Origin: a virus | Taxonomy: Duplodnaviria; Caudoviricetes | Virus record (IMG/VR): IMGVR_UViG_3300035148_000179 | Location: 1 to 48,527 of that record | Strand: one strand, 5' to 3' | Length of the DNA: 48,527 nt | Shown: piece after piece, positions 835 to 42,432 of the stretch | Layout of the letters: the number at the start of each line of letters is the position of its first letter | How positions within the stretch are numbered: the stretch's first letter is position 1 | Program-made: the position numbers and the translations under genes | The notes under the pieces: model-generated | The model's database searches: none | The model's input: the letters and a program-made list of their open reading frames with translations, nothing else | Told to the model about the DNA's origin: nothing

Positions 835-2409
835 ATGGCATTCAGTGACGCATTCGCACGCGGCTACGCTGTCGGCGACTCGATCAGGAAGAAGCGGGCT
901 ACCTCGAAGTTCTTCGAGAAGTTCAAGGAGCTGACCGCCGAAGACGAGGAGGAGATGGTTGCTGAGGATGGGTCTGCCATTCCTCTTGACTCGCCTGCTG
1001 GTGAGGAAGTTGCTGCGGCTATTCCTGCTGCAACGGCAAAGCCTGGCGAAGCTGCTATCCCTGCCGCCACTGCGGGCGTAACCCCTGAGCAGCCTCCGGC
1101 TCCAGCTCCGGCTGCGATCCCCATCGCACCCGAGAAGCCTCCGGCTCCTGCTGCGGAAGCAGCGGCTCCTGCTACTCCCGAGAAACCTGCGACTCCGGCT
1201 GCTGAGGCTGCGATTCCAGTCGAGCCGGAGAAGACGCCGGAGGAGAAGAAGCTCGAGAAAGATATCCAGAAGCAGGCTGAAAAGAAGGCCAAGAAGTCAC
1301 TCGATCAGAACGACATCAAGGACCTTGACCGGCTTGCATTGGAAGCCGCACGTGCGTCCGGTGACGTGCAGGTTTACACCGCGCTGAAGCAGACGACCGA
1401 CTCGTTCCTGCAGGGCAAAGTCTTATCCAATCTGGGTCTAGCCCAGCGAGCCGCACAGAACGACGATATCGACTCAGTCGAGAAGTATCTGAGGAAAGCC
1501 TACCGCTTCGTTCCTGACGGCCAAGGGGTCAAGTTCGAACGGAAAGACGGAAAGCTCTGGGTCAACAGTCCGTGGGAAGACGGCCAGAAGATCCCGCTCG
1601 GGGCCGAGCAGATCGGGTACATCGGCACCATGCTGACCAACCCTGAGAAGTGGTCCGATATCATGCGCGAAGGGCGCAAGGACCGCGCCAAGGCGAAGCT
1701 CGACGAGCGCGGCGTGGCGGTGCAAGAGGGGAACCTCGACGTCAACAAGCGGCGTGCCGACATCGAGGCGCAGCGGCTCAAGGATCAGCGTGCCGAGTTC
1801 GTAAAGACCCATGCACTCGCGCAATCGAAGGAAGCCCGCGAGGCGGCTGGGCAGAAGTACGACAACCTGGTCAAGATGGCGCAGGCGGCGAACTACTACG
1901 CCGAGGCCGAGTACACGCGCGCGGGCAAGAGCGGCGCAGCTGGCGGCATGAAGCCGGACGATATGCGCCAGTACGGCATCGCGGTGAGCAACGAGCTCGA
2001 TGGATTCCTGGCACCGACTATGCCTCCTGATCCGAACAACCCAGTTGCGAAGCCGACCGTTGGGGCTCCGCCGCGTGGATACGAGATGTTCGTTAACACC
2101 GAGGGTGAGGGTAAGGACAGGCGGCCGATTGGTGGGCTGAGCGTGCTCGGCCTGCAGGCGAAGGATCTCGGCGGTGCCATCGGTATCGCTAATCCTGAAC
2201 TGGGTGCGGCCGGCGCAGCCCGTGCAGGCCTGGAGATTACGCGAGCCCTCGTGGATCCGAAGGGGCCAAACCTTGCGGTATCGCCGTCGCGCGGTACTGT
2301 CACGATCCCGATCGGCGGTCGGCTCGTAGCAGTGAGGGTCCCGCCTGCCATCATGGAATCATTCATCGCTGCGGCCAAGCAACAGCAGCCGAAGCCTGAG
2401 AGCAAGTAA
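835..2409 (+). CDS. Putative ejection/internal virion protein, 524 aa
   Basis: Long ORF beginning MAFSDAFARGY, with a Pro/Ala/Glu-rich linker and coiled-coil C-half. Stop overlaps the next start (TAATG). Confidence 0.65.
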   Translation: MAFSDAFARGYAVGDSIRKKRATSKFFEKFKELTAEDEEEMVAEDGSAIPLDSPAGEEVAAAIPAATAKPGEAAIPAATAGVTPEQPPAPAPAAIPIAPEKPPAPAAEAAAPATPEKPATPAAEAAIPVEPEKTPEEKKLEKDIQKQAEKKAKKSLDQNDIKDLDRLALEAARASGDVQVYTALKQTTDSFLQGKVLSNLGLAQRAAQNDDIDSVEKYLRKAYRFVPDGQGVKFERKDGKLWVNSPWEDGQKIPLGAEQIGYIGTMLTNPEKWSDIMREGRKDRAKAKLDERGVAVQEGNLDVNKRRADIEAQRLKDQRAEFVKTHALAQSKEAREAAGQKYDNLVKMAQAANYYAEAEYTRAGKSGAAGGMKPDDMRQYGIAVSNELDGFLAPTMPPDPNNPVAKPTVGAPPRGYEMFVNTEGEGKDRRPIGGLSVLGLQAKDLGGAIGIANPELGAAGAARAGLEITRALVDPKGPNLAVSPSRGTVTIPIGGRLVAVRVPPAIMESFIAAAKQQQPKPESK

Positions 2410-5400
2410 TGCCCATCGTCATCGACGAGGAAGCGGGCGTCCAGGTAACAGGCTCCGGCGGGCTCTCGATCCCCGGGCCGGTGCCTGCGAGCATGCGCGA
2501 AGAAACCGACCGCCTCTACAAGGAAGCGGCCGCTGGTATCAAGAAGGACTTCCCGGGTATTGAGTTCGGTATCCCGATGCGGCGCGGCGCGGCGGCCGCC
2601 GGCGGAGAGGCTGCGGCTGCACCGGCCGTATCAGACGAACCGGACTTCCTGCTTGGCCCCACGGAAGAAGCCCCGCCTGAGCCAGAAGCGCCTGCGCCTC
2701 CGAAGGAACCGCCGATTGGGTGGTTCAACGCGATGACGCGCGGCCTGGCCGAGCGCACTGCAAACATGGTGGGGTTCATCCCTGATACTGCCAACACGAT
2801 CGCTGACCTCCTGCCTGACTGGATGGATCAGGGGTTGGTGGTGGATCAAGACGGCATCCGTCTGGCCAGCGGCAAGGAGTACACCGACGTCTCAGTTGCC
2901 AAGTCGGCAAGCGAGGGGTTGGGCAACGCCAACTTCGGTTCGAACCGTGGCACCTTGGCCACGCCAGAGGAGATCAAGGCGCAGTGGGCCAGCGGCGACA
3001 AGATGTCCGCCACCGGCAACGCGGTCCAGTTCGGTATCGAGCAGGGGCTCCTGTCTCTGCCGGACATGATTGCCATCATGGCGAACGCGCCGCTCTACTA
3101 CATCGGTCTGTCCAGTGACTATGCGCAGCAGCGTGCACAGAACGATGGGCGCGACAAAGCCAATGCGGCCGACGCGCTGATCGCAGCAACCACTGGTGCC
3201 GTCGTCGCCAAGCTCGAGAAGATCGGTGCTGAGAAGGTCTTCGATAAGTTGGGCGCTGCGACGAAAGGCAAGGTACGTGATTGGCTCGAGAAGATAGTCA
3301 CCGAGGGAATCACCGAAGCCGTACAGAACCCTGTCGAATACGTCGGCACGCGGCTCGCTACTGAGAAGGCTGGCGAAGTCACGGCTGGCGCTGTCGGGGA
3401 ACAGGCCCTGTTCGGCGCACTGGGCGGCCTGGGCGGCGGTGCTGCCATTGGTGGCGCTACCACGTTGCTCAGTCCGAGCCGCGAACAGCCGGCCCCGCCG
3501 GCCCCGGGCGTTCGAACGCCTGTTACAACGCCGCCAGCTGGTGGCGCACCGGTGGCGGGTGCCGCACCGCCCCCTGCCGGCCCAGGTGGGCCCGGCGGTC
3601 CCGCCCAGCCTGCGGCCCCAGCCGCGAGCCAGATGCCGAAGCCGGGCGACGCGGTCATTTTCAAGCCGTTGCCGAACCAGGATGGTGTCGTAGTCGAAGT
3701 CCAGCAGGTGGACCCCAAGACGCAGACCGCCATGGTGGCGCGCGTCGACCCCGAGTCTGGCGAGGCCATCATGGACGAGGACGGCAAGCCCGTCACGTTC
3801 ATCGCCACGTTTGGCGACCTAGGGCTGAATGCTCCGGCGGCCGCACCCGTCGCGGCCGCGCAGCCCGCCGTGCCGGTCAAGCCGTCGGCTGTTCCGCCAG
3901 CGGCAACCAGTGTTGAGCCGACGTCGGACGTCGCCGGCCAGCTCAAGGATATGTGGCGCGCGGATACTGGGCGGCGAGGCGTATACATCTCCGCTCCCAC
4001 CGTAGCGAAGATGAAGCAGGAAGGGACGTTCGACGCCCTGAAGAAGTCCGGCCAGATCGAGGAGAACTTCGACGGCCAGGGTGGCACGCTGATCGTCAAG
4101 TCCAAGAAGGATCTCGACGAGGCCCGCGCGGCCCGCGACGGCGGCCAGACTGACATGCAGGCGATCGTCGGTTCCTTGACCGGGGCCGGGGTGGCCAAGC
4201 CCAACGTGCCCGCGCCGGCCGTTGTGCAGCGCAAAGACGAGACCGGGGCTGTCGTGCAGCAGACCGCCGTGCCGCCGGGCGCGGCCGCAGCCACGGCTGC
4301 CGCAGTGGCGACTCAGCCTGGCACGGTGGAAGTCGTCACTCCAGAAGTGGCCCTGGCCGAGCGCGCGGCAAAGGTTGAGGCGGAACAGGCCGCTCCGCCT
4401 ACGCTGGAGCCCGTGGCGCCGACCACAGAAGTGCCCGTTGAATCGCCCAAGCCCAAGGCGAGGACCGCCCTGGCGCAGCTGGACGACGCTCTGAGCTTCG
4501 CTATCCGGGCGATGAACACCACGAAAGGCGCGAACAGCGTCAAGGTCGACGTCCGCGAGGCGGCCGTGGCCGTCGGGACTCTGGCCCAGGCCTTGCGGCC
4601 GGCGATCGCCGAGGCCCAGCGCCGGGGCGCGACGGACGAGGACGTAGCCCAGGCGGCTGAGGCGGCCGCGCTGGCTGAGAGGCTGACCGAAAAGCAGGAA
4701 GGTGACTTCAAGAAGGGCCGGGGTGTCAGCGAGCCGAAGCTGCGCGTACACCTGGCCAGGCTGAGCGACGCCGTGGCCTCGCTCGAGCAGTGGGCAGACA
4801 AGCCCCTGGTTGGCGAGACCCCGCCCGCCAAGCAGACCAAGGCCGAGAAGGCCAAGACGGTGTCCAAGAAGAAGGAAGCCAAGATCCAGGAACCGGCTAA
4901 GGAGCCGACCAAGGAAGACCGTCGCACCGCCGAGGGCGCAGCCCTGCGTGCCCGCATCGAGGCGATGTCGCCCGAGGAACGGGAAGCCGCCATCATGCGG
5001 CACGACCTGACTGGCCTGCCGAACCGCCGCGCGCTGGATACCGCGCCGGTGTCGCCTGCGTATGCAGAGGTGGATGCCGATTCGCTGAAGTGGGTGAACG
5101 ACAACATGGGTGAGGAAGCTGGCAACCAGCTCCTCAAGAACGTGGCCAAGGCGCTGTCCAACCAGGACGGCGTCACTGCCTACCATGTGTCAGGCGACGA
5201 GTTCTACATCACGGGTGAATCCGAGGCGGTGATCGAAGCCGCGCTGAAGGCGGCCGCCCGGGAATTGGTGAGCCTGCCGGTGAAGTCCGGTGAGACTCTC
5301 GTCACGCCCCAGATCACGTGGGGCACGGGCACGACCCGCGAAGCGGCGTCGGCCAAGATGAAGGAACAGAAGGTAGCGCGCGAGGCCAAGGGCAAGCGCG

Positions 5401-8400
5401 CCGGCCGGGGCAAGACGCCCGGCAGCTACAAGAACACGAAGCAGGCTGAGCTTCCGCTGAGCCAGGGCACTACGGTCAAGGTCTCCAAGACCAAGACCAA
5501 GTATGTCCCGCCGAAGAAGCGCGAACCAACGTCGGATCAGGTGGCGGATCAGGTGGCTGAGCAGACGGCTGCACCGCAACTCGAGACCGTCAGCCTGGCG
5601 CCGAGCAACGTGGCAGGACAGGAAGCCCAGTTCATGGCCGAGCTGCTGCGGGCCGATCCGCAGGAACTCGCCAACGAAGCGCAGATGGACAAGAGCGGTC
5701 GGCTGACCGCCATCCTGCGCAACGTGATCAGCGCCATGAACAACCGTGGCAACTGGACTGGGTGGTTTGCCGCTGTCACGCGCAGCGAAGTACTCACTCG
5801 TGAGCAGCGCACTCAGCTGTTCACCTTGATCCGTGAATACTCTGAGGTCAGTGATCGAGATATCGGCCCTGTACGCGAGCAGATCCTCGGCCTCGTCACC
5901 AACCTTGACGGCAAGACCCTGCCTCCTGACGCCATCGCTGCTGTATTCGAAGCGGCCAATGTCGCTCGCGCGTACCTGACGATCCGCGAGAACATGCTCA
6001 CCGAGGAAGACGTACTCGAGATCGAGGCAGAGACCAAGCGTACCGAATTCGATACGGGCTCGATCAACAAGACGACCGGCCAACTGTCGACCCGCAAGAA
6101 CGACGAGATCGCTCGTGCCAAGACCCTGGACGAGATCGGCAACGCGGTCGAAGCGCTGCCTAATTCGATCGACGTGCTCAACGAGTTGATACAGCTGGAG
6201 CCTACCGCCTTGAAGAAGGCGCTTGTTGGGTTGTGGAACGCGGCCGCACAGAACCGCTGGATCAACGGCGTGATGGCGAAGGCGATGCAGGATCAGGCTA
6301 CTGGCAAGCCGATGCTCAGCTCGCACGCTTTGATGGATGGATTTCTGAACCGTCTATCCATGGTACAGGACGATACTGGACTGCGACGAATCCTCACGTC
6401 GATCCGCCGCGTCATGCCGAATGTGCCTGTCGAATTCTATGACTCGGGAACCCTGCCGATCGGCCTCGAAGGGCAGGTGCTCGATCCGGCCGGCGGCCGA
6501 TATTTCCCGCAGGGGTTCCTCCAGCTGGCGGTGGCGACGGACGAAAACGGCCTACCGATGTGGGACCTACACACGCTGCGCACGTTTATCCACGAGTCAG
6601 TCCACTCGGCGACGATCTATGAGCTTGAGCGGAATCCGAATGGACCGCTGGCTGTGAAGCTAGAAGCCCTGCGCAAAGAGATCGAGGTGAAGGCGCGTAA
6701 GAAATACGGGCGGCTGATAGTCGATCCAATCCTGGCGTACTACCAGAACAAGCGCAGAGGACCGAAGCCTCCGGGTACCGACAAGATCGGCAGATACCTG
6801 TACGGTCTTACCAATGTGCATGAACTGGCCGCCGAGACCATGTCGAATCCTGGGTTCCAGGCGTTCGTAAACTCGCTTGATCAGACCCCGACAAAGTCGT
6901 GGGCACGCCAGAAGTTCTCTGAGTTCATGCGAGCGGTGAAGGATCTGCTTGGGATCAAGAACCCGAAGGATGGTCGCATCCTTAACGATCTAGTGGTAAC
7001 GACGCTACGCACCATGAATGCTCAGCGCGGCCGACAGAACCGCCGCGAAACGCATTTCCGTCAGGGTGTCGACACACTGATGAAGTATCTGAAGCTGTCT
7101 CGTCTTGACGCTGAGAACGTCATGCGTGGCAGCGCAGCCGGCTTCGATCCGGGAGTGAAGGGCGTCACTGTGCCCGCGCCGCCGCGCGGCGTGGATCCAG
7201 ATTCAGCTGCGTGGCTCGTTGACACGTACTCTGAACAAGCCTACGGCATGGGTGTCGAAGGCCTGACGAAGACGGTGAACGCTGGCCGCATGGCGCCCGC
7301 CGACGCACTCCCGCGTCTGAAGAACCATGAGGCTCTGGCCAATCTGTCTGGTCCGCGTACTGCCGACGCGCTTGGGTGGGTACGCCAGGCGATGCGGTCT
7401 GGCTTTGTAGACAAGGTACGAGACACTGGCCTTGGGTTCGTGACCACAGACTTTCTGGTACGGCGCAGTGCCCGGGTGTTTGGGTCGAGCACCGACTCGA
7501 GCAACCCGCTCGTGAACTGGAAGAACATCCGCGACACCCGTCGATCCTTCTCGAACCAGCTAGCTGAGCTGGCTGAGAAGACGGTCAACTCCAAGTGGAT
7601 GAAGCTCACCCTGACTGAAAGCGAACAGGTCGGCGATGTCCTGCAAGAGACCACCCTCTGGCAGATCGATCCCGAATTGGGTACGAACCAGCCCAAGTTG
7701 CTCCCGCACGTCTCGAAGAAGCGTTGGGACGCGAAGGTTGCCGAGCTCGAAGCCAAGTGGAACGAGCTGAATGAACCGCAGAAGGAGCTGTACCGTTCGG
7801 TGCAGCGGTACTTCAAGACTGAGTACGCCCGTATCCGTAAGGCGAGCATAGATCTCGCCATTGATTTGTACGGTGTAGGCCTCACGCCGCAGCAGAAGAC
7901 CCTGCTGTACGCGCTGAAGAATGCAGACGGCGCCGACCGAATCATTGGGTCGGGGCTAGCCATCGACCTTGGCGATCAGAACGATACGTTCCGCAAGGTC
8001 GTCAAGGATCTGGTCAAGGTGTCGGCGATCAGGGGGCCGTACTTCCCGCTGATGCGGAAAGGCGACCTGGTTGTGGAAGCTGCTCGCGAGGGGGTGATCC
8101 AGACCGATGGCGGCGAAGCGGTTGAGTTCTCTACTAAGGAGGATGCCCAGGAAGCTGCTGATGGGATTCGCAGCCTGGCGCCGAAGAATACGGCGAAGGT
8201 GAAGGCGGTGGGGGATAAGTTCGTGGTGCACTACAAGATGCGTCACGTATCTTTCCATACGAACCAGACCGATGCATTCGACGCGATTGCACAGTTGAAG
8301 CAGAAAGGGTTTGCCGTTGAAGGTGACGTCTTCACTCGCAAGCTCGAGTCAGTCGAGAGCGCCAGCCTCACCGAAGGGCTGAAGGAACTGATGGCGAAGG

Positions 8401-10385
8401 CTGAGTCAGTGGCCGGCACGAAGGGGCCGAACGCTGCAGCCGAGCAACTGGCCGTGGTGCAGAATCTGCAGTCAGCATTCACTCAGATATTGGCGGAGCG
8501 TGCGGCATCGGCCAGCTCGCAGCTCAAGCGGCAAGGCGTCGCAGGGTTCAAGGGGAAAGAAGCGCACGAGATCTTCACTCGCCGCGTCCGCGCCTCGTCA
8601 TGGCACTACGCAAACCTGAAGACCTCGCTGGCGCAGTCGAAGGCACTCTCGCGCCTCCGCAAGTTCTCGCGCAGCTGGGAGGAGGGCGGCCTTACCCCCG
8701 GGATGGACGCGCAGCAGACAGTACTGGCACGTGGCCGAGTGATGAACGAAATAACCCGGCGGCTCCAGGTAGAAGCCGGCGAGCTTGACTCGCTGGACAA
8801 GTCGAACGTGGATTACTACCTCGGTCAGCTCGGGTTCATCAACTTCCTGGCTACGCCATCGTATGCGTTCGTGAACTCGATGCAGAACTTCAACGTGGCA
8901 CTGCCTGTGATCGCCGGCAAGTACGGTCCGCGCGGCGCCCGTGCCCTCATGCGCGGCATGCGCGTGGTGGCGGGGCCGGCGTTTGCCAAGGCGATGCGTG
9001 GCCTGGCCTCCCGGCCGGGCGACGTCACGTCCTATGATGTGTACTCCGCTATCGCTGAAGCCGTAAAGGAAGATCCGCGCTTCGGACGTTTCACTCAGCC
9101 GAACGGCAACGAGCCATCAGCGCTCCAGCAGTTGGTGGATCGTGGAGTAATCAACGCCACGTACGTGCAGGAACTGACGTCGATCGCCAATAACCAGAAC
9201 CTGATGCTCACTCGTGGGCTCGAGTACCTGCGCCTCCTGCCACAGGGAGCGGAGTTGTGGAACCGTATCAGCACCGCCTTGGCTGTGCTCGACGTCACGA
9301 ACGGGAATGTGGACAAGGCCGCAGACATGGTGGACCAGGTCCACTTCCAGTACACGCAGGAGAACCGACCGCGCTTCTTCCGGAAGATCGGCGGCACCCG
9401 ACTTCCGCAAGCACTGACGATGTTCAAGATGTACTCAGTTGCCATGTACCAGTTGACTGGTTCGCTGATGGCAGACGCCTTCACGCGGCGCGGGCAGACG
9501 CTCCAGGAACGGCAGCAGGGCGCCATGGCACTGGCCGGCATAATCGCCGCGCATACGCTGTCTGCTGGCATCATCGGCGGACTGATGATCGAGCCGCTCC
9601 GCATCCTGCGACAGCTGTGGGATGCCCTTGGCTTCGATGACGACGACGAATTCGACGACCTGGATACTATGGTTCAGCGCTGGGCTATGCAGGTAACAGG
9701 CAGCGAAGACGCAGCCAGGCTGCTGTCCAAAGGCGCGTGGAACGCGCTCGGGTTCGACCTGAGTGACCGTATGGGGCTCGACAAGATCCTCATGTACAAC
9801 CCGCCCGAAGGCATGGACGAGGATTCGCTAGCCAAGTTCATGTTCCAGACGATCGGCGGACCAATCCCTTCGATGGTGCTGCAACGTGGCAGTCGCGCGT
9901 ACGAAAAGGCTGTGATCCAAGGCAAGCCGCTTGATGCGATCATGGAGATGGTCACGGTCAAGCTGTTCCAGGATGCACGCAAAGCGTGGGAGATCCTGCA
10001 TAAGGGCGTAACGACTAGGGCTGGGGAGACAGTGGTCCCGGCAGAGAAGTTCGGCTATCTAGATGCCGTTGGCCGGGTGGCGGGATTCCGCACCACTGAA
10101 GAAGTGAAGGCCCAGGATAAGGCCTCCACTGAATTCCGCTACAAGAAGTGGCGGCAGATCCGTGGGCAGCAGCTCACGAATCGATTCTGGAATGCTTACG
10201 ACTCAGATGATAAGGCGGCTACAGCCGAAGCCGTAGCCGCCATCAAGGAGTTCAACCGGAAGAATCCGGGTGCCCCTATTACGGGGGACTCACTGCGGAC
10301 TTCGAAGCAGCAGAAGATGGCAAGTGCAAGGTCTCGCGTTGGGCAAGGTCGGAACCCTGACCTGAACGAACTTCTGGCGTATTGA
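2409..10385 (+). CDS. Giant polyvalent ejection protein (2658 aa): GGDEF-like domain, zincin metallopeptidase, PLxRFG-like region
   Basis: DLTGLPNRR...DADSLKWVND...SGDEF (aa ~865-932); HESVH (aa 1395-1399) plus downstream HELAAE; YFPLMRKG (aa ~1878-1885); hydrophobic helices near the C-terminus; last gene of the virion block. Confidence 0.85.
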   Translation: MPIVIDEEAGVQVTGSGGLSIPGPVPASMREETDRLYKEAAAGIKKDFPGIEFGIPMRRGAAAAGGEAAAAPAVSDEPDFLLGPTEEAPPEPEAPAPPKEPPIGWFNAMTRGLAERTANMVGFIPDTANTIADLLPDWMDQGLVVDQDGIRLASGKEYTDVSVAKSASEGLGNANFGSNRGTLATPEEIKAQWASGDKMSATGNAVQFGIEQGLLSLPDMIAIMANAPLYYIGLSSDYAQQRAQNDGRDKANAADALIAATTGAVVAKLEKIGAEKVFDKLGAATKGKVRDWLEKIVTEGITEAVQNPVEYVGTRLATEKAGEVTAGAVGEQALFGALGGLGGGAAIGGATTLLSPSREQPAPPAPGVRTPVTTPPAGGAPVAGAAPPPAGPGGPGGPAQPAAPAASQMPKPGDAVIFKPLPNQDGVVVEVQQVDPKTQTAMVARVDPESGEAIMDEDGKPVTFIATFGDLGLNAPAAAPVAAAQPAVPVKPSAVPPAATSVEPTSDVAGQLKDMWRADTGRRGVYISAPTVAKMKQEGTFDALKKSGQIEENFDGQGGTLIVKSKKDLDEARAARDGGQTDMQAIVGSLTGAGVAKPNVPAPAVVQRKDETGAVVQQTAVPPGAAAATAAAVATQPGTVEVVTPEVALAERAAKVEAEQAAPPTLEPVAPTTEVPVESPKPKARTALAQLDDALSFAIRAMNTTKGANSVKVDVREAAVAVGTLAQALRPAIAEAQRRGATDEDVAQAAEAAALAERLTEKQEGDFKKGRGVSEPKLRVHLARLSDAVASLEQWADKPLVGETPPAKQTKAEKAKTVSKKKEAKIQEPAKEPTKEDRRTAEGAALRARIEAMSPEEREAAIMRHDLTGLPNRRALDTAPVSPAYAEVDADSLKWVNDNMGEEAGNQLLKNVAKALSNQDGVTAYHVSGDEFYITGESEAVIEAALKAAARELVSLPVKSGETLVTPQITWGTGTTREAASAKMKEQKVAREAKGKRAGRGKTPGSYKNTKQAELPLSQGTTVKVSKTKTKYVPPKKREPTSDQVADQVAEQTAAPQLETVSLAPSNVAGQEAQFMAELLRADPQELANEAQMDKSGRLTAILRNVISAMNNRGNWTGWFAAVTRSEVLTREQRTQLFTLIREYSEVSDRDIGPVREQILGLVTNLDGKTLPPDAIAAVFEAANVARAYLTIRENMLTEEDVLEIEAETKRTEFDTGSINKTTGQLSTRKNDEIARAKTLDEIGNAVEALPNSIDVLNELIQLEPTALKKALVGLWNAAAQNRWINGVMAKAMQDQATGKPMLSSHALMDGFLNRLSMVQDDTGLRRILTSIRRVMPNVPVEFYDSGTLPIGLEGQVLDPAGGRYFPQGFLQLAVATDENGLPMWDLHTLRTFIHESVHSATIYELERNPNGPLAVKLEALRKEIEVKARKKYGRLIVDPILAYYQNKRRGPKPPGTDKIGRYLYGLTNVHELAAETMSNPGFQAFVNSLDQTPTKSWARQKFSEFMRAVKDLLGIKNPKDGRILNDLVVTTLRTMNAQRGRQNRRETHFRQGVDTLMKYLKLSRLDAENVMRGSAAGFDPGVKGVTVPAPPRGVDPDSAAWLVDTYSEQAYGMGVEGLTKTVNAGRMAPADALPRLKNHEALANLSGPRTADALGWVRQAMRSGFVDKVRDTGLGFVTTDFLVRRSARVFGSSTDSSNPLVNWKNIRDTRRSFSNQLAELAEKTVNSKWMKLTLTESEQVGDVLQETTLWQIDPELGTNQPKLLPHVSKKRWDAKVAELEAKWNELNEPQKELYRSVQRYFKTEYARIRKASIDLAIDLYGVGLTPQQKTLLYALKNADGADRIIGSGLAIDLGDQNDTFRKVVKDLVKVSAIRGPYFPLMRKGDLVVEAAREGVIQTDGGEAVEFSTKEDAQEAADGIRSLAPKNTAKVKAVGDKFVVHYKMRHVSFHTNQTDAFDAIAQLKQKGFAVEGDVFTRKLESVESASLTEGLKELMAKAESVAGTKGPNAAAEQLAVVQNLQSAFTQILAERAASASSQLKRQGVAGFKGKEAHEIFTRRVRASSWHYANLKTSLAQSKALSRLRKFSRSWEEGGLTPGMDAQQTVLARGRVMNEITRRLQVEAGELDSLDKSNVDYYLGQLGFINFLATPSYAFVNSMQNFNVALPVIAGKYGPRGARALMRGMRVVAGPAFAKAMRGLASRPGDVTSYDVYSAIAEAVKEDPRFGRFTQPNGNEPSALQQLVDRGVINATYVQELTSIANNQNLMLTRGLEYLRLLPQGAELWNRISTALAVLDVTNGNVDKAADMVDQVHFQYTQENRPRFFRKIGGTRLPQALTMFKMYSVAMYQLTGSLMADAFTRRGQTLQERQQGAMALAGIIAAHTLSAGIIGGLMIEPLRILRQLWDALGFDDDDEFDDLDTMVQRWAMQVTGSEDAARLLSKGAWNALGFDLSDRMGLDKILMYNPPEGMDEDSLAKFMFQTIGGPIPSMVLQRGSRAYEKAVIQGKPLDAIMEMVTVKLFQDARKAWEILHKGVTTRAGETVVPAEKFGYLDAVGRVAGFRTTEEVKAQDKASTEFRYKKWRQIRGQQLTNRFWNAYDSDDKAATAEAVAAIKEFNRKNPGAPITGDSLRTSKQQKMASARSRVGQGRNPDLNELLAY

Positions 10386-15433: not shown

Positions 15434-15589
15434 GTCCTCTCCTCTGAATGGATGCGGGAGTCACGGCGGAAGGAGGTAGCCGTAGCTAACCGCCGCCTCC
15501 CAGCTGCCGGGGTTTTTGTAACCGAGGCACTCACCGGCTGATCCTCGCCTACGCTATCCGCGATGCGGTCCCCGTAGGTGGGTGGTCGA

Positions 15590-30392: not shown

Positions 30393-30581
30393 TCAGTCCT
30401 TCGGCTTGCGGTACGTGCGGCCGGTGGCGATGTTGGGCACGCTGCCGTGGTTACGCGCGGAGCGAGCCAGGTGGGCCTGCGGCGTGCTCACGTGCAGGTA
30501 GCGAGCGAAGCCGTGGTTACGCGGCGTCGCCTTCATCTGCTGCCACTTGGCCTTCTGAGTCGTCGAACTGGGGGTCCCCAT
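30393..30581 (-). CDS. Small basic hypothetical protein
   Basis: AGGAG RBS; 62 aa. Confidence 0.55.
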   Translation of the reverse strand: MGTPSSTTQKAKWQQMKATPRNHGFARYLHVSTPQAHLARSARNHGSVPNIATGRTYRKPKD

Positions 30582-30834
30582 TGCCTTCTCCTTTCGCCCA
30601 TAGGCGAATCAGTTCTGATGCAGGCTTGATGTTTGGGCTGCGGTGGTCGGTGAAGAACGCGTCCATCTCAGCCAGGGTTGGGTGCCGACACTCAGCCACC
30701 CAGTTCTGCCAGCCGGCGCGGGCGGCAGCCAGCATGACGGATTCGACGCTAGGGAAGAACCCCAGCACCTCGCCCGTCTCTGGATTACGAACCGTGTGGA
30801 CCATCGCCGCACGATGCTTCGGTGTTGTCGTCAT
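30517..30834 (-). CDS. Hypothetical protein (start 30834 or 30804)
   Basis: ORF bridging its neighbours; start uncertain. Confidence 0.5.
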   Translation of the reverse strand: MTTTPKHRAAMVHTVRNPETGEVLGFFPSVESVMLAAARAGWQNWVAECRHPTLAEMDAFFTDHRSPNIKPASELIRLWAKGEGNGDPQFDDSEGQVAADEGDAA

Positions 30835-31063
30835 TGGGCACCAGGAAGCCCCGCACGTCGATGTTCTCGACGTGATCGAGACATGCGCTCCACTGTCCCT
30901 CGCGCCGGCGCATGTAGATAGCATGGAGCACCTCGTGTAACTCCAGCTGGGCACTGAGATGCGCCTCGCGGGCGATGCGGACACGCCGCTCGACCTGCTC
31001 GCGGAGCATCTCGAGCTTCCACATGGGCAGCCGAGGGGTGATCTTGGGTTTCAACGCAGGCAT
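30785..31063 (-). CDS. Hypothetical protein, first gene after the structured leader
   Basis: GAGGA RBS; 92 aa. Confidence 0.65.
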   Translation of the reverse strand: MPALKPKITPRLPMWKLEMLREQVERRVRIAREAHLSAQLELHEVLHAIYMRRREGQWSACLDHVENIDVRGFLVPNDDNTEASCGDGPHGS

Positions 31064-31069
31064 GGTGTC

Positions 31070-31545
31070 CTCGTAGTGAAAGAAGGGGCTGGGTGGGGAG
31101 TCGGGGCCTCATTGGGATAACCGCCATCCACCCAGCCGTGTCCCCACTGCATGTTAGCCTCAGAGCGCCCCAATGGGGACCGAAGACGCTCCGATTGGTG
31201 CTGCGATTAACCCGTACCCCGCAGCTCAGGCCGCCACACATGGCTTGCACTTGGGCGGGTCAGCCTGTTGGGGTGCCCGCTTGCCGCCATGCCTCAACGG
31301 ATCGAAAGGGGAGAGTGGGGGCGGAACGTGGACCGCTTGCGTCGTTGGACGCACCTCTACACCCACCCAGCGACGCAGCCACCATAGGGCACGCTGCAAC
31401 CTTGCGCTGTTCTCCCGAAACTTGGCCGTGCCCTTGCGAGGCTGACGGGACGGCGGCTCCGAACGACCTTTCATGCCGGTGGTCGATCTTCCGCGCCACT
31501 GTTTCGGCGTGGCCGCCCTACTCCGCTGCAAGTCAGCGGTAACTG
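31070..31545 (-). ncRNA. Candidate structured leader/ncRNA (~480 nt)
   Basis: No credible ORF. Many 8-11 bp stems, a 10-bp pseudoknot pairing, and a terminal hairpin plus pyrimidine tract. Confidence 0.5.
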
Positions 31546-31615
31546 TGCGCACACTGTAACTGCGTACGCAGCGATGATTGGTGCCGCCAGTCAGAGCCGG
31601 GCGGCGCGGCTAAGA

Positions 31616-31981
31616 GGACAAGTGTAGGGGAGATCACTTGTCCCGGAATCGTGGCCACTTGGCGGGCCTTGTCCAGTCACTTGTCTAGTGGACCGGAGGT
31701 GAAAACGCTTGGCCGCTCAGCCACTTGGCGCACTTGTCCCACTTGTCCAGTACTTCAAAACAGAAGGGCTTTATATACTCTCTCACCCGCTAGGTCGCAT
31801 TGACCCAGGGTATACCCCCCTTTTATAGGGTGTATAGATAGTAGTAGACAAGTAGGACAAGTAATATATATATAGAGAAATCTATATTGGGGATCAATGA
31901 CTTAGCATCGATCTACTTGTCCACTGCCCCGCGAAAACGCTAGACAAGTGGCCGGACAAGTCCATTTTACTGGACAAGTGG
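31616..31981. repeat. Iteron-like GACAAG/CTTGTC repeat cluster around an AT-rich core: candidate replication origin
   Basis: 12 copies of the (G/A)GACAAG(T) core in both orientations; AT-rich stretch ~31755-31890; IHF-like GATCAATGACTTA at 31892-31904. Confidence 0.7.
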
Positions 31982-32027
31982 CGAGGTGGCGAAGCCTCTT
32001 GGATACGTACTCAGGGGAGAATACGCA

Positions 32028-32066
32028 TCAAAGAGGCTTGGCGGCTGAGTATTCAGCCGCCAAGCC
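32028..32066 (-). terminator. Intrinsic terminator after the 171-aa early gene
   Basis: Perfect 14-bp stem GGCTTGGCGGCTGA/TCAGCCGCCAAGCC (32035-32066) followed by UCUUU on the minus strand. Confidence 0.65.
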
Positions 32067-32080
32067 GCGTCGCGGTGCTG

Positions 32081-32596
32081 TTACGCGGCGGCCTGAAGCT
32101 TGGAGGCTTCGACCCACAGCGTCGCCAGCAACTCACGGGCTTCGGGGGCGACCTTGGCGGTGCCGTCCGGATTCAGCCCGTCCTCGTTCGCCTTACGCTT
32201 CAGGTACGCGACGACCTGAGCGACGTTCAGCGTGGAGTAGCCCTTCTCCGCCACGAGGTCGGCGAAGGAGGTCTCGTAGGCTCCGTCGATGTCGAACATC
32301 TCCGGGGTCCGGGACTTCAGCAACTTCGCGCCCCAGCCGCCCGACTTGTCGAACGTGAAGGTGGCAGCACCCGCGCTGAAGTGACCGTACCAGTGCGCCA
32401 GGGCCTTGACTCGCTGTCCGTTCGGCAGCGCGTCGAGCAACTTCACCGCGAGGGTGTAGTCACCGTGGTCCCTGATGTGAGCGAGAGTCGAAACCGCGAC
32501 GACGTGGATCTCGTTCTGGAGAGCCTTGCCGATCTTCTTGATGCGGTCGATCTTCTTGCCGCACGTGGCCTGATCGAGAATGGTAAAGGTAGTCAT
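32081..32596 (-). CDS. Conserved phage early protein, 171 aa
   Basis: Start MTTFTIL at 32596 with CAGGAG RBS; HGDYTLA..L..ALP.G.R..AL..W motif recalls early proteins of other podoviruses. Confidence 0.8.
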   Translation of the reverse strand: MTTFTILDQATCGKKIDRIKKIGKALQNEIHVVAVSTLAHIRDHGDYTLAVKLLDALPNGQRVKALAHWYGHFSAGAATFTFDKSGGWGAKLLKSRTPEMFDIDGAYETSFADLVAEKGYSTLNVAQVVAYLKRKANEDGLNPDGTAKVAPEARELLATLWVEASKLQAAA

Positions 32597-32702
32597 AGAA
32601 TTGAACTCCTGTGGCGCTTTCGGATGGGGCTCACAACCCCGGACCTTGGTGGACGATTCCACCCCGCTGCACCCCCGCGAGGAGGTGCAGAAGGCTAGAG
32701 CA

Positions 32703-32876
32703 TCAGCCCCAACTGGCGATAACCCGCTTCATCTCGGCACGGTCGAGGCACTTGTGCACCCCAGTCGGAGGCTTGCGCTTGTAGCCGCCGCCCCACCCCG
32801 TCGGTTTGACCACGCGAACGAAGGACACGCGCGGTGCACCTTGCGAGCGCAGGATCATGGACCAATTCGTTTTCAT
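32703..32876 (-). CDS. Small basic early protein, 57 aa (absent from the ORF track)
   Basis: Hand-translated MKTNWSMILRSQGAPRVSFVRVVKPTGWGGGYKRKPPTGVHKCLDRAEMKRVIASWG*; AGGGGT RBS-like sequence upstream. Confidence 0.55.
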   Translation of the reverse strand: MKTNWSMILRSQGAPRVSFVRVVKPTGWGGGYKRKPPTGVHKCLDRAEMKRVIASWG

Positions 32877-32929
32877 GGCTCGGACCCCTAGTGCAGCCGC
32901 CGCGTGATTGCTGCGGCTGTAGTAGGGAT

Positions 32930-33318
32930 TCCCGGTGCGGTCGCGCGTGGTGCTCTTTGGGTCGCACCCCGTCCCCGCTCACGCGGCCGGGAGCCGCGAG
33001 AAACTTTTACTTGTTGCCAGAGAGTTACGAGGCTCTCCGACCGACCGGGCGCACGACGCCACTCGCGCGGGACCGACCCAAGTGTGAGGACTCTGCCTCG
33101 TAGCCTCAGTATCCCCGCGACTTGATTTCGCGTGACGGAGGGGTAATCACCCCGCTCCGGGGAGGGCTCGCTATCCACCGTTCCGGGCTCAGTCGGGCGT
33201 GCATACTCGGGGCGAACACCTTTGGGGTGCAGGCTGCCGTGCGCGCGGACCTTGCGAGGTCTAGCTTCGGTGCGGGTTAGACTTACGGGGTGCTCGCAAC
33301 ACGCTTGCGCTCGTCCTT
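32930..33318 (-). ncRNA. Candidate large structured ncRNA (~390 nt)
   Basis: Lies downstream of a leftward TTGACA promoter candidate. GNRA hairpins, a 9-bp end-to-end helix and complementary hairpin loops. Confidence 0.55.
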
Positions 33319-33321
33319 CCA

Positions 33322-33348
33322 ACCATAGGGAAAACCGCGTTATGTCAA
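33322..33348 (-). promoter_or_regulatory. Leftward sigma70-like promoter candidate
   Basis: TTGACA (33348-33343) and TATGGT (33327-33322); the spacer is only 15 nt. Confidence 0.45.
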
Positions 33349-33424
33349 ACCCCTCCCCCACTGGCCACGGGGGGTGGGGGTGGCCCCCTTTCCTATCTCA
33401 CTCAGGCATATCAGATCGAAAAAT

Positions 33425-33453
33425 TTGACATACCCACGTTCTACCCCTATCCT
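33425..33453 (+). promoter_or_regulatory. Rightward sigma70-like promoter
   Basis: TTGACA-17 nt-TATCCT, preceded by an A-tract. Confidence 0.7.
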
Positions 33454-33459
33454 GCCCGC

Positions 33460-33843
33460 ATGAGCTCACTCCTCCCAGACATATGGTCCAAGACCTTCCT
33501 CTCGAAGATGAAAGACCGTAGCCGGTTCGAGGACCTGGTCTCCCCCGCGCACCTGGAGCCCCGGGACACATGGGCGCCAAGCGGCGAAACCTTCGAGGAA
33601 GCCGTGGCCTGGGCCCGCCTCCTCAACATCACAGTCACCAAGCCACGTCAGGGCGCCATGGCCGAGAACTTCGTCCTTACCGCGCCTGGCGCCATCCCAC
33701 GAATGATTCCCATCTGCTCACCCACGGAGCTGATTGATGTCCTACGCCGCCTTGCAAGCAGCACCTCCAACACCTTCATCCACGAAGCGCCGAGTCCGGC
33801 ACAACCAAAGGTATGCCATGGCCGTATCACCGTTCGCCGCTGA
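33460..33843 (+). CDS. Hypothetical protein, 127 aa (possibly leaderless)
   Basis: ATG lies 7 nt after the -10 box; no SD. Confidence 0.55.
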   Translation: MSSLLPDIWSKTFLSKMKDRSRFEDLVSPAHLEPRDTWAPSGETFEEAVAWARLLNITVTKPRQGAMAENFVLTAPGAIPRMIPICSPTELIDVLRRLASSTSNTFIHEAPSPAQPKVCHGRITVRR

Positions 33844-34039
33844 GCTCGAGACGTACGCTAAGATGATCGGCGGCAATATGATCTACATCGCCGAGCATCA
33901 GTCGTGGACCATCACGTTCCCGACGCCAGACGGCAAGGCGGCAATGATTCGAATCGACGAAGGCACTCCGCTAGACGACGCGGTGGCAGCCTTGGCTACC
34001 GCGTACCAGGAAACCCACCGGAGAACGACTGATGTCTGA
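33818..34039 (+). CDS. Hypothetical protein
   Basis: Start MAVSPF at 33818 with AAGG RBS. Confidence 0.6.
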   Translation: MAVSPFAAELETYAKMIGGNMIYIAEHQSWTITFPTPDGKAAMIRIDEGTPLDDAVAALATAYQETHRRTTDV

Positions 34040-36139: not shown

Positions 36140-37525
36140 GTGGACCTGAACTACACTCCGCCGCCCACCCTTGGGCGGTTCATGGCTTCGGATGCCCGGG
36201 TCCGCATCGTTCGCGGACCCGTTGGTTCGGGTAAATCTACCGTCATGGTAGTAGAGATGCTGCGCCGCGCATGCGAGCAAGCTCCCGGGCCTGATGGCAT
36301 CCGACGCACCCGGGGTGTGATTGTCCGAAACACTCTCGGCCAATTGCTCACGACCTCGCTCGAGACCATCAAGACAGTGATCCCGCCGGAGATCATGTCG
36401 TACAAGGTCAGCACCCACACGGTGCACATCCGGTTCAACGACGTCGACTCAGAGTGGATCCTCCTCCCACTCGATACGCCAGAGAACGTCCGGCGCCTGC
36501 TGTCGTTGGAGATCACATTCGCCTGGCTGTCTGAGCTGCGCGAGATCCCCGTGAAGATCCTCGAAGACGTGTTCGGCCGTTGCGGCCGCTACCCGTCGAA
36601 GATGCGCGGAGGCCCCACGTGGTATGGCGTCTTCGGTGAGACGAACTCGTTCAGCGAGGACGACGCGTGGTTCACCAGGCTCGAGCTCGAGCGGAATCCC
36701 AGCTGGGGCTACTTCATACAGCCGGGCGCGCGGGACCCGGGGGCCGAGAACCTCGAGAACCTGCAGCCCAACTACTACGCTGACCTGGTAGAGAACAACA
36801 CGTTCGAGTGGACCGAGCAGTACATCGACAACAAGGTGACGCCTTCGCTGTCAGGCGAGGCTGTCTTTCGTGCGTCGTTCCGTCCGGACTTCCATATCGC
36901 GAGCCAGATCCTCCAACCGGTGCCGCACACCATGCTGATTACCGGCATGGACTTCGGACGGTCGCCGGCGGCGGTCATCACCCAGATGGATCCGCGCGGC
37001 CGCATCCTCGTACTTGCGGAGAGCATCAGTGAAAACATGGGAATCGAGCAGTTCTGCGCTACGCAGTTCCGCCCAATCATTGCTGAGACACAGTTTGCTC
37101 GCCTACCTATCGGTGTCGTTGGCGATCCTGCTGGCCGCATCCGTTCTCAGATTGGCGAAGAAAGCATATTCGACGCGCTCAAGAGACTCGGGCTGAGCGC
37201 GCAGCCGGCGCAGACCAATGCCATCGACCCCAGGCTCCGCGCCGTCGAGAAATGGTTCCTACAACAGCGGGATGGTGGCCCCGCGATCGTGATCAGTCCT
37301 CGCTGCGAGAACCTGATACGTGCGCTACGGGCGAAGTATCGGTATGCTAAGCGCAAGGATGGCCAGCTGCACCCCGAACCGGTCAAGGACCACCCCTGGT
37401 CCGACATCGCGGACGCCCTGCAGTACGCTGTCCTTGGACATTCGACCCGAGTCACGGCAAGATTCATGCGCCCGAGGCGTGATGAGTCCCGAACTCAGGT
37501 CCCGAGACCCTCCGGGTGGACCTAA
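36140..37525 (+). CDS. terL: Terminase large subunit
   Basis: Walker A GPVGSGKS, IVRNT, WLSE, nuclease GMDFG, GDPAG, HPWSDIADALQY. Confidence 0.92.
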   Translation: MDLNYTPPPTLGRFMASDARVRIVRGPVGSGKSTVMVVEMLRRACEQAPGPDGIRRTRGVIVRNTLGQLLTTSLETIKTVIPPEIMSYKVSTHTVHIRFNDVDSEWILLPLDTPENVRRLLSLEITFAWLSELREIPVKILEDVFGRCGRYPSKMRGGPTWYGVFGETNSFSEDDAWFTRLELERNPSWGYFIQPGARDPGAENLENLQPNYYADLVENNTFEWTEQYIDNKVTPSLSGEAVFRASFRPDFHIASQILQPVPHTMLITGMDFGRSPAAVITQMDPRGRILVLAESISENMGIEQFCATQFRPIIAETQFARLPIGVVGDPAGRIRSQIGEESIFDALKRLGLSAQPAQTNAIDPRLRAVEKWFLQQRDGGPAIVISPRCENLIRALRAKYRYAKRKDGQLHPEPVKDHPWSDIADALQYAVLGHSTRVTARFMRPRRDESRTQVPRPSGWT

Positions 37526-41436: not shown

Positions 41437-42432
41437 ATGGCATATCCAATTTCTGGCAGTCCGTATAGCGGTTCTGCTGCAAGTCCGGCCTACGCCGGCG
41501 TCTTCATCCCGACCATCTGGGCGGGCAAGTTCGTCGAGAAGTTCTACGACGCGACGGTCCTGGCTGCGATCGCCAACACGGATTACGAAGGCGAAATCCG
41601 CAACATGGGCGACACGGTCAAGATCCGGACCCGTCCGACGATCTCGATCGCCAACTACGAGGCCACGCAGGCCCTCGTGGTCACCCGTCCGAGCGCGCCT
41701 TCTGTTGACCTGAACATCAACAAGGGCAAGTACTTCAACACGGTCCTCGACGACGTGATGGAAGTGCAGGCTGACGCCGACCTTCTGAGCCTGTGGGCGG
41801 ACGACGCCTCCGAGCAGATGAAGATCGCGGTCGACACCGACGCGCTGGCCTACAGCGTGTGGAACACCGGCACCGTCGCGGCCAACAAGGGCCAGACCGC
41901 CGGCCGTCTCAGCGGTGACATCCGCCTCGGCATCACGACCGCCCCGGCGTACGTGAACGTGGCTGCCCAGGGCACCGGCGCTGGCGACACGAACGCGAAC
42001 GATCGTTCGGTCATCGACCACCTGGTCGACATGGGCCAGGTTCTGGACGAGCAGAACATCCCGGAAAACGGCCGCTTCGTGATCGTCCCGGCGTGGTACG
42101 CCTCGATGATCAAGCGTTCGGAACTCCGTGATGCGTCGATCGCCGGTGACGGCGTGTCGATGCTGCGCAACGGCCGACTCGGCATGGTGGATCGCTTCAC
42201 GATCTACGTGTCGAACCTGCTGCCGTCGGGCGTCGCGGGTGGAATCGCTGCTGGTGAGTTCGCGATCTACGCGGGCCACAAGCAGGGCCTCACCTTCGCG
42301 TCGCAGATGACCAAGGTCGAGACGCTCCGTTCCGAGAGCACGTTCGGCACCCTGCTCCGTGGCCTCCAGGTCTACGGTCTGGGCGTGGTCGACGGCACGT
42401 GTCTCGTGACGAGCATCGTCGCCAAGGGCTAA
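41437..42432 (+). CDS. Major capsid protein (HK97 fold, P22-coat-like)
   Basis: FIPTIW, NTDYEGEI..GDTVKI, RGLQVYG; strong codon bias; followed by a terminator. Confidence 0.88.
   Translation: MAYPISGSPYSGSAASPAYAGVFIPTIWAGKFVEKFYDATVLAAIANTDYEGEIRNMGDTVKIRTRPTISIANYEATQALVVTRPSAPSVDLNINKGKYFNTVLDDVMEVQADADLLSLWADDASEQMKIAVDTDALAYSVWNTGTVAANKGQTAGRLSGDIRLGITTAPAYVNVAAQGTGAGDTNANDRSVIDHLVDMGQVLDEQNIPENGRFVIVPAWYASMIKRSELRDASIAGDGVSMLRNGRLGMVDRFTIYVSNLLPSGVAGGIAAGEFAIYAGHKQGLTFASQMTKVETLRSESTFGTLLRGLQVYGLGVVDGTCLVTSIVAKG

Follow-up and report, generated by a model that had tools for sequence, protein, structure and literature searches.

The early region of bacteriophage T7 opens with the host promoters A1-A3, an untranslated leader and the RNase III site R0.3, and gene-free, processed early leaders are known from this phage; we know of no conserved multi-helix fold for the T7 leader. 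In the HK022 put and lambda nut-N systems, a structured RNA lies right after the early promoter and a small basic protein is encoded adjacent to it. Phage hammerheads flanking genes have been proposed to self-cleave long transcripts into units, and an intergenic hammerhead of phage PaP3 was active in vitro (PMC3088659, accessible text). Large structured non-coding RNAs, some of them phage-associated, include ROOL, GOLLD and OLE (PMC12286853, accessible text). Gene-less transcription units have been mapped by ONT-cappable-seq in LUZ19 (Phikmvvirus; 1284-1704, 420 nt) and LUZ24 (Bruynoghevirus; 657-998, 341 nt), and further 3' ends were placed just after the phrog_1448 homologue, at positions 2851 and 1872, respectively. 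In the accessible part of that report no terminator type is predicted for the 3' ends of the two gene-less units, and the ncRNA table, limited to RNAs shorter than 250 nt, has LUZ19 and LUZ24 rows that are other loci (PMC10914365).

The candidate RNA analyzed in this study lies in a virus record of 48,527 bases, referred to below as the window, which is linear, shows no end repeats that could be found and is about 80% complete by estimate. Encoded in the window are a portal, a family A DNA polymerase, an SNF2 helicase, an ATPase, the large subunit of the terminase (at 36140) and a major head protein (at 41437), whereas a scan of 18 of its proteins identified no RNA polymerase, the record being 80% complete. 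The best-matching sequencing runs were soil metagenomes from one study; the matching runs listed were of DNA, with no RNA data set among them, and 8 of the 19 were used. A contig of a related phage (L038, 60.8 kb) is filed in an Acidobacteriaceae metagenome bin, which is a weak host hint only. Far from the locus, the window also carries a Proteo-phage-1 RNA (RF03044) at 15502-15583 on the minus strand (64.6 bits) and, at 2409-10385, a gene for a 2658-aa protein that gave a GGDEF-like match (E 2e-06) and an LPD39 match narrowly below its cut-off.

The candidate is flanked by a rightward promoter-like site (33425-33453) and a leftward run of small genes. Its transcription unit consists, in order, of the leader, a long hairpin, the gene for a 57-aa basic protein, another hairpin, the gene for a 171-aa protein and a terminator-like stem, and the features are as follows:

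33322..33348, minus strand: predicted leftward early promoter (TTGACA, 15 nt, TATGGT), within the clade-wide motif GTCCA...ACATAA...CCCTAT
32920..33316, minus strand: structured leader RNA without ORF, about 400 nt, both ends predicted; homologous to loci L007, L008/L009 and L010
32881..32934, minus strand: long hairpin with internal loop before the first RBS, a predicted RNase III-type site (-30.6 kcal/mol for 32875-32945)
32703..32876, minus strand: 57-aa basic protein (12 R+K, 2 D+E) of no known family; 7 homologues besides itself, 57-81% identity
32081..32596, minus strand: 171-aa phrog_1448 protein (PHROG E 2e-25), homologue of LUZ19 gp3 and LUZ24 gp2
32035..32066, minus strand: terminator-like 14-bp hairpin closing the unit

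The leader is a gene-free stretch that follows a host-type promoter and heads the early genes, as a T7-type leader does, the activity of the promoter being predicted from its sequence. That a leftward promoter lies here had been part of the original prediction; the site is plausible and its motif is kept in relatives, whereas its short 15-nt spacer is the reason why it is missing from our consensus-scan list. Taken as its reverse complement, the ACATAA conserved beside the promoter (33340-33370, in relatives) gives the core of the phiKMV phage-specific promoter; that promoter has a leftward copy near the left end, and no RNA polymerase was identified in the window. Like that of T7, the window's leader would be the first transcript made by the host polymerase, with a long untranslated start and with long hairpins between early genes, but the window has no identified RNA polymerase of its own and the downstream genes differ. 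A stable hairpin 3' of the 171-aa gene was called at 28 of 29 loci, a count that is unreliable because GC-rich RNA passes the threshold easily. Beyond the unit, 31600-32030 forms a second ORF-poor stretch in which an AT-rich core is surrounded by a GGACAAGT-like motif in many copies, both direct and inverted, an origin-like arrangement; similar tracts with other repeat units are found in L035, L036 and L068, sited there between the leader and the small ORF. Further on, about 530 GC-rich bases without a convincing gene (31080-31610, minus strand) precede an RBS at 31075; they are hairpin-rich, although the folding z is only -0.5, and gave no significant match to the group covariance model.

Homologues of the 171-aa protein numbered 79 among 193 candidates. 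Locus scans with 171-aa alignments and with the terminase returned 5, 24, 7, 3 and 18 loci, duplicates included, while the first locus scan, made with a single protein, found no locus; a promoter pattern scan gave three further distinct loci. Several contigs ended too soon upstream, two weak Streptosporangium hits were not used, and L037 has no such promoter. The promoter motif was located at 23 loci including the window, to which L007 (cut at its 5' end) and then six more distant loci were added. The commonest layout in the relatives comprises the promoter, a leader of about 270-450 nt without ORF, a long hairpin, a small basic gene and the phrog_1448 gene; where measured, at 12 loci, the first start codon lies 274-453 nt beyond the -10 box. 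Because the loci were selected through phrog_1448, the association of RNA and gene is partly built in.

The leaders split into groups that match each other poorly, and the group of the window is formed by L007, L008/L009 and L010, with nhmmer E values of 3.5e-30, 2e-21, 6e-22 and 6e-06 for a query that included the promoter and the small ORF. The 5' part of the window's leader also gave a borderline 57-nt match to L019 (E 8e-4 in an all-against-all comparison of 40 sequences). Pattern scans for motifs of the 3' domain (at least 119 loci each) added no new homologue by nhmmer, a second promoter scan (at least 120 loci) no new leader, and blastn of the leader against cultured phages only one 30-nt chance match. 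Rfam 15 returned no leader hit in the window, at 19 related loci or at 17 further loci, and the limited sensitivity of the last of these scans can be seen from visible hammerhead motifs that it also missed; in the original prediction, too, no known family was recognised. Neither a tRNA nor a tmRNA was found by ARAGORN in L001 or in any leader of the 23 loci, and 3 tRNAs were found elsewhere. Possible likenesses to HDV-like, twister and T-box elements, RNase P and group I/II cores, judged by eye, were dropped, and Rfam found none of them. The hexamer AGCCCG occurs in 19 of the 23 leaders scanned, often in hairpin stems, and is not enriched in the window's genome.

Within this group, the following elements of the leader could be compared, all on the minus strand:

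33134..33179: helix GGUGGA/UCCGUC enclosing a hairpin, middle domain; 6/6 pairs in L007, one via a one-sided change
33086..33099: hairpin GAGG-CAGAGU-CCUC, with GUGG/CCAC in L010; its 5' arm is part of a loop proposed earlier to kiss another
33051..33068: hairpin with an invariant GUGGCG loop closed by A-U; covariation in 5 sequences (4 lineages)
32931..33049: 3' domain closed by CCCGGU/ACCGGG, with hairpins 33041-33016, 32998-32982 and 32969-32947
32992-32988 with 32977-32973: predicted pseudoknot, with a single one-sided change as support

In the GUGGCG hairpin, all 20 of 20 cells are paired across the 5 sequences (4 lineages), 3 of the 4 pairs show double changes, none of 500 shuffles reached its covariation score and slid controls paired at 6-50%. 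Between the 3' half of the window's leader and that of L007, the closest relative, all 31 of 31 hand-assigned pairs are kept, 8 of them by double change (the GUGGCG hairpin and the predicted pseudoknot included); these pairs were assigned after the sequences had been seen, so that the counts lean towards the model, and only 2-5 sequences underlie the covariation. Four other relatives form a second group, with a multibranch fold of its own in which 17 of 43 predicted pairs are doubly changed (0/500 shuffles). The 29 leaders hold 48 GNRA-capped hairpins, where shuffles have a mean of 27.6 and a maximum of 40, and GUAA-containing loops are found in 11, against about 2; both patterns were picked after inspection and the 29 leaders are related. 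When a covariance model of the 3' domain was used, L010 was the top non-training match (E 0.017), also at the expected place, and L008/L009 matched weakly there (E 0.6-0.7); leaders from the other groups and from cultured phages went undetected with this model, which has two training sequences and barely finds its own group.

These comparisons show where the stretch lies and in which order the genes follow, that none of its ORFs is conserved, that helices covary and that the GUGGCG loop is invariant, and we are confident that the stretch is a conserved folded RNA. It was predicted originally as a folded non-coding RNA of about 390 nt directly after the leftward early promoter, and this is supported for an RNA of about 390-400 nt without ORF, with helices that covary in relatives. 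Very improbable is a reading without any RNA element, whether a 157-codon ORF is taken for a gene or the stretch is given a role as DNA (a genome end, or a signal for entry or packaging). An open frame at 33361-32888 does exist, and conservation at the DNA level is seen for the motif that lies upstream of the promoter; however, the frame opens before the predicted promoter, is put out of register by a deletion of 1 nt at 33347 (three runs) and is not kept in L007-L010 apart from a 14-residue match in L007, which largely refutes it as a gene. No overlapping ORF is conserved in the relatives, and changes compatible with G-U pairing together with the GNRA loops point to RNA.

The fold supported by covariation is not the one first put forward, in which a large RNA is closed by a 9-bp helix, organized by a kissing pair of loops (UACGAGG/CCUCGUA) and possibly catalytic or targeted at an RBS. 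All hairpins and complementarities quoted for that model were found on the minus strand where they had been placed, including the 9-bp complement 33293-33285/32972-32964. They occur at chance level: of 1000 dinucleotide shuffles, 172 produced a Watson-Crick match of at least 7 bp from one hairpin loop to another, 71 of 300 shuffles contained a perfect long-range helix of at least 9 bp, and the region folds with a z-score of +0.51 (68 of 100 shuffles fold as well). In a strain about 99% identical over 448 nt, one of the 5 differences, C33031A, falls in the CCUCGUA loop while its partner is unchanged (runs X1 and X2, one study); by our reading of the fold, 4 of the 5 substitutions lie in linkers or bulges and the fifth in a loop, in keeping with the fold described above. 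Since L010 has GUGG/CCAC around an identical loop, the GAGG of the supposed kissing partner pairs locally with CCUC around CAGAGU, as one strand of a covarying stem; a relative's contig end in run X1 has GCCG/CGGC around a similar loop (one contig). At the comparable positions of L007, which is cut at its 5' end and aligns poorly at the loops, 3 of 7 kissing positions and 1 of 4 closing-helix positions pair. The 3' strand of the 9-bp helix is part of a local hairpin in L007, with double changes, and differs at 5/9 and 2/9 positions in two other contigs in which only this strand was readable. The loop-loop pair is thus neither kept nor covarying in homologues and the 9-bp helix is not a conserved element. 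L007 could form another loop-loop pair of 4-5 bp at roughly corresponding hairpins (by reading). The match of the CCUCGUA loop to the RBS at 31069-31075 is unremarkable, because the 48.5 kb hold 5 copies of the heptamer on one strand and 4 on the other, and no ribozyme motif was found in the leader RNA. We therefore regard the model as a whole as highly unlikely. One further element of it survived: the alternative pairing 32931-32943/33038-33049 is present, and L007 keeps it (33049-33044 with 32936-32931, 6/6 pairs unchanged). ROOL, GOLLD and OLE are likewise large, structured and non-coding, but the window's leader has no Rfam match, its loop-loop pair is unconserved and it is far more variable between relatives.

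This variability also bears on the possibility that the leader is an ordinary T7-type untranslated early leader, that is, a spacer at the end that enters first, whose hairpins are selected only in general, to ward off Rho and nucleases, whose cutting serves the downstream mRNA and whose released piece is inert. Such a spacer might well diverge as fast as these leaders have done, into groups without detectable mutual homology. Identity to L007 is 56% in the 5' half, where contigs of other relatives cease to match; it is 68% in the 3' domain (chosen as the best-matching part) against 55% in the neighbouring 57-aa gene, which favours a functional RNA. The folding energy of the whole leader is ordinary as well (z +0.5 to +0.8 in the window; z < -2 in 4 of 24 leaders). 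Against a spacer, an 8-nt loop segment is invariant in four lineages while the stems around it are replaced, and long-range helices are kept.

The 3' end of the leader is marked by a hairpin of about 19 bp with an internal loop (z -1.7). For the last 72 nt, z < -2 was obtained in 13 of 24 leaders and in 2 of 24 inner controls, although in the window's own group the values are -1.7, -0.7, -0.1 and -4.8, the hairpin being weak in L007 and L008. A hammerhead motif (CUGANGA ... GAAA core, three stems) was not found on either strand of window positions 30501-34000, whereas in LKA1 and DL54 a pattern check revealed hammerhead-type motifs at the leader 3' end (L449:706-760 and L448:700-752), unreported by Rfam. 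Second motifs of this type, likewise unreported by Rfam, lie further into the early region of DL54 (L448:2057) and LUZ24 (L457:2415). LUZ19 has a long hairpin at its leader end, with the mapped 3' end in the 5' arm, and the mapped end of LUZ24 falls in a weaker hairpin. The occurrence of two different cutting devices at one place suggests that separation of the leader from the mRNA is selected, and we consider it probable that the leader is released as a discrete species.

In 11 cultured-phage records the phrog_1448 gene is among the first few genes at the left end, and distances of 1.2-2.3 kb from that end were read in cultured phages with this gene. A host-type promoter precedes the first gene by 341-630 nt in 8 of the 9 records scanned, 7 of these at 341-466 nt; in RSB1 a short annotated ORF lies inside this span. 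Left ends without genes and with several host promoters are general in these phages, which favours a spacer, but leader length is about 340-470 nt in 7 of the 8 cultured phages measured, and the LUZ19 leader is 64% identical to that of DL54 over a 181-nt domain although the two belong to different taxonomic groups. Taking both sides together, we consider the spacer reading possible but rather doubtful. The annotated LUZ19 gp0.1 (L456:1616-1744) overlaps the mapped 3' end (1704) as well as the domain common to the LUZ19 and DL54 leaders, and may not be a gene. The leaders of LUZ19 and LUZ24 resemble that of the window in having a host promoter, a gene-less unit, small basic genes, a phrog_1448 homologue and a 3' end, in that order (PMC10914365, accessible text); they differ in having several tandem promoters, against one found here, and show no sequence or model match. 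Homology of phiKMV-like or LUZ24-like leaders to the window's RNA was not detected by blastn or by the two-sequence covariance model, and the link between them is one of position, size and neighbours only. Discrete gene-less RNAs at the corresponding place have been shown in other phages by published end-mapping, and that of the window is predicted by analogy.

The RNA, the basic peptide and the early protein appear to form one short unit, since 3' ends follow the phrog_1448 homologue in LUZ19 and LUZ24 and a terminator does so here. A basic ORF of 49-87 aa was detected at 24 of 35 loci, some of the misses being due to the RBS filter; it is absent at L027, L432 and L437 and precedes the RNA at L433 and L438. 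The 57-aa protein of the window has no PHROG, Pfam or Atlas match, and a possible likeness of some of its homologues to ribosomal protein bL36 was set aside for want of Pfam support. The 171-aa gene begins 280 nt downstream of the first start codon; HMM hits of its product to LUZ19 gp3 and LUZ24 gp2 have E values of 3.6e-15 and 4.8e-07 (Z=1000), and 413 phage records match it, including Friunavirus, phiKMV-like and LUZ24-like phages. Its structural model (pLDDT 91) matches uncharacterised phage proteins only, and its Atlas matches are unnamed clusters. Among solved structures Foldseek gave no match with E < 0.001 and VIA a best Z of 5.6, from which a new fold does not follow. In LUZ24, a 34-nt piece is removed from about 4% of gp2 reads (L457:1659-1692) by a mechanism that is unknown according to the accessible text of the report (PMC10914365).

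An adjacent small basic protein would also suit a cis-acting antitermination RNA like HK022 put or lambda nut, with or without that protein as an N-like adaptor, whose nascent fold would modify the host RNA polymerase and so let it read through early terminators. N and Nun bind nut RNA via an arginine-rich motif (PMC4496710, accessible text). The leader does follow the early promoter directly, a terminator-like hairpin lies two genes downstream, and an RNA polymerase was not among the 18 proteins scanned in this 80% complete record, all of which agree with antitermination. An antitermination RNA needs a tether to the polymerase, however, which a cut at the leader 3' end would sever. Moreover, transcripts do stop behind the phrog_1448 homologue in LUZ19 and LUZ24, at L433 and L438 the RNA comes after the basic ORF, and the leader is without an Rfam match and several times longer than put or nut, with a likely 3' cut. 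We consider antitermination unlikely.

The reading we prefer, tentatively, is that of a structured leader whose transcription probably comes first, which is probably freed by a cut at its 3' hairpin and which probably acts together with the proteins of its own unit. Transcribed from a predicted start site, the leader would be the first RNA made on infection, and host RNase III would cut it off at the long hairpin. The freed RNA of about 400 nt would then persist, bind the small basic protein, the phrog_1448 protein or both, and serve in trans as a scaffold or decoy while the host is taken over. Against this reading stand the fast divergence of the 5' half, the ordinary energy of the whole leader, the weak terminal hairpin within the window's own group and the 11 of 35 loci at which no basic ORF was found; furthermore, LUZ24 gp2 was reported not to inhibit host growth (PMC10914365, accessible text).

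A more speculative extension, to which we give a low probability, is that many unrelated podoviruses open infection with a three-part module composed of a 300-450-nt RNA, a basic protein and a phrog_1448 protein. The RNA, released by either RNase III or a hammerhead, would join the two proteins in a ribonucleoprotein not yet described, active in trans during the first minutes as a decoy or in host take-over, and would diverge fast through conflict with the host. Our literature search, whose coverage took in few subscription journals, yielded no paper that names this leader RNA, and neither it nor Rfam contained a covarying fold linked to phrog_1448.

The gene-free left end of podoviruses is usually taken as promoters plus spacer, and here it carries a covarying RNA fold. 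This fold is tied to phrog_1448, which is among the commonest unexplained early genes. If the first RNA is itself the working molecule, phrog_1448 would gain a partner and a further class would be added to the non-coding RNAs of phages.
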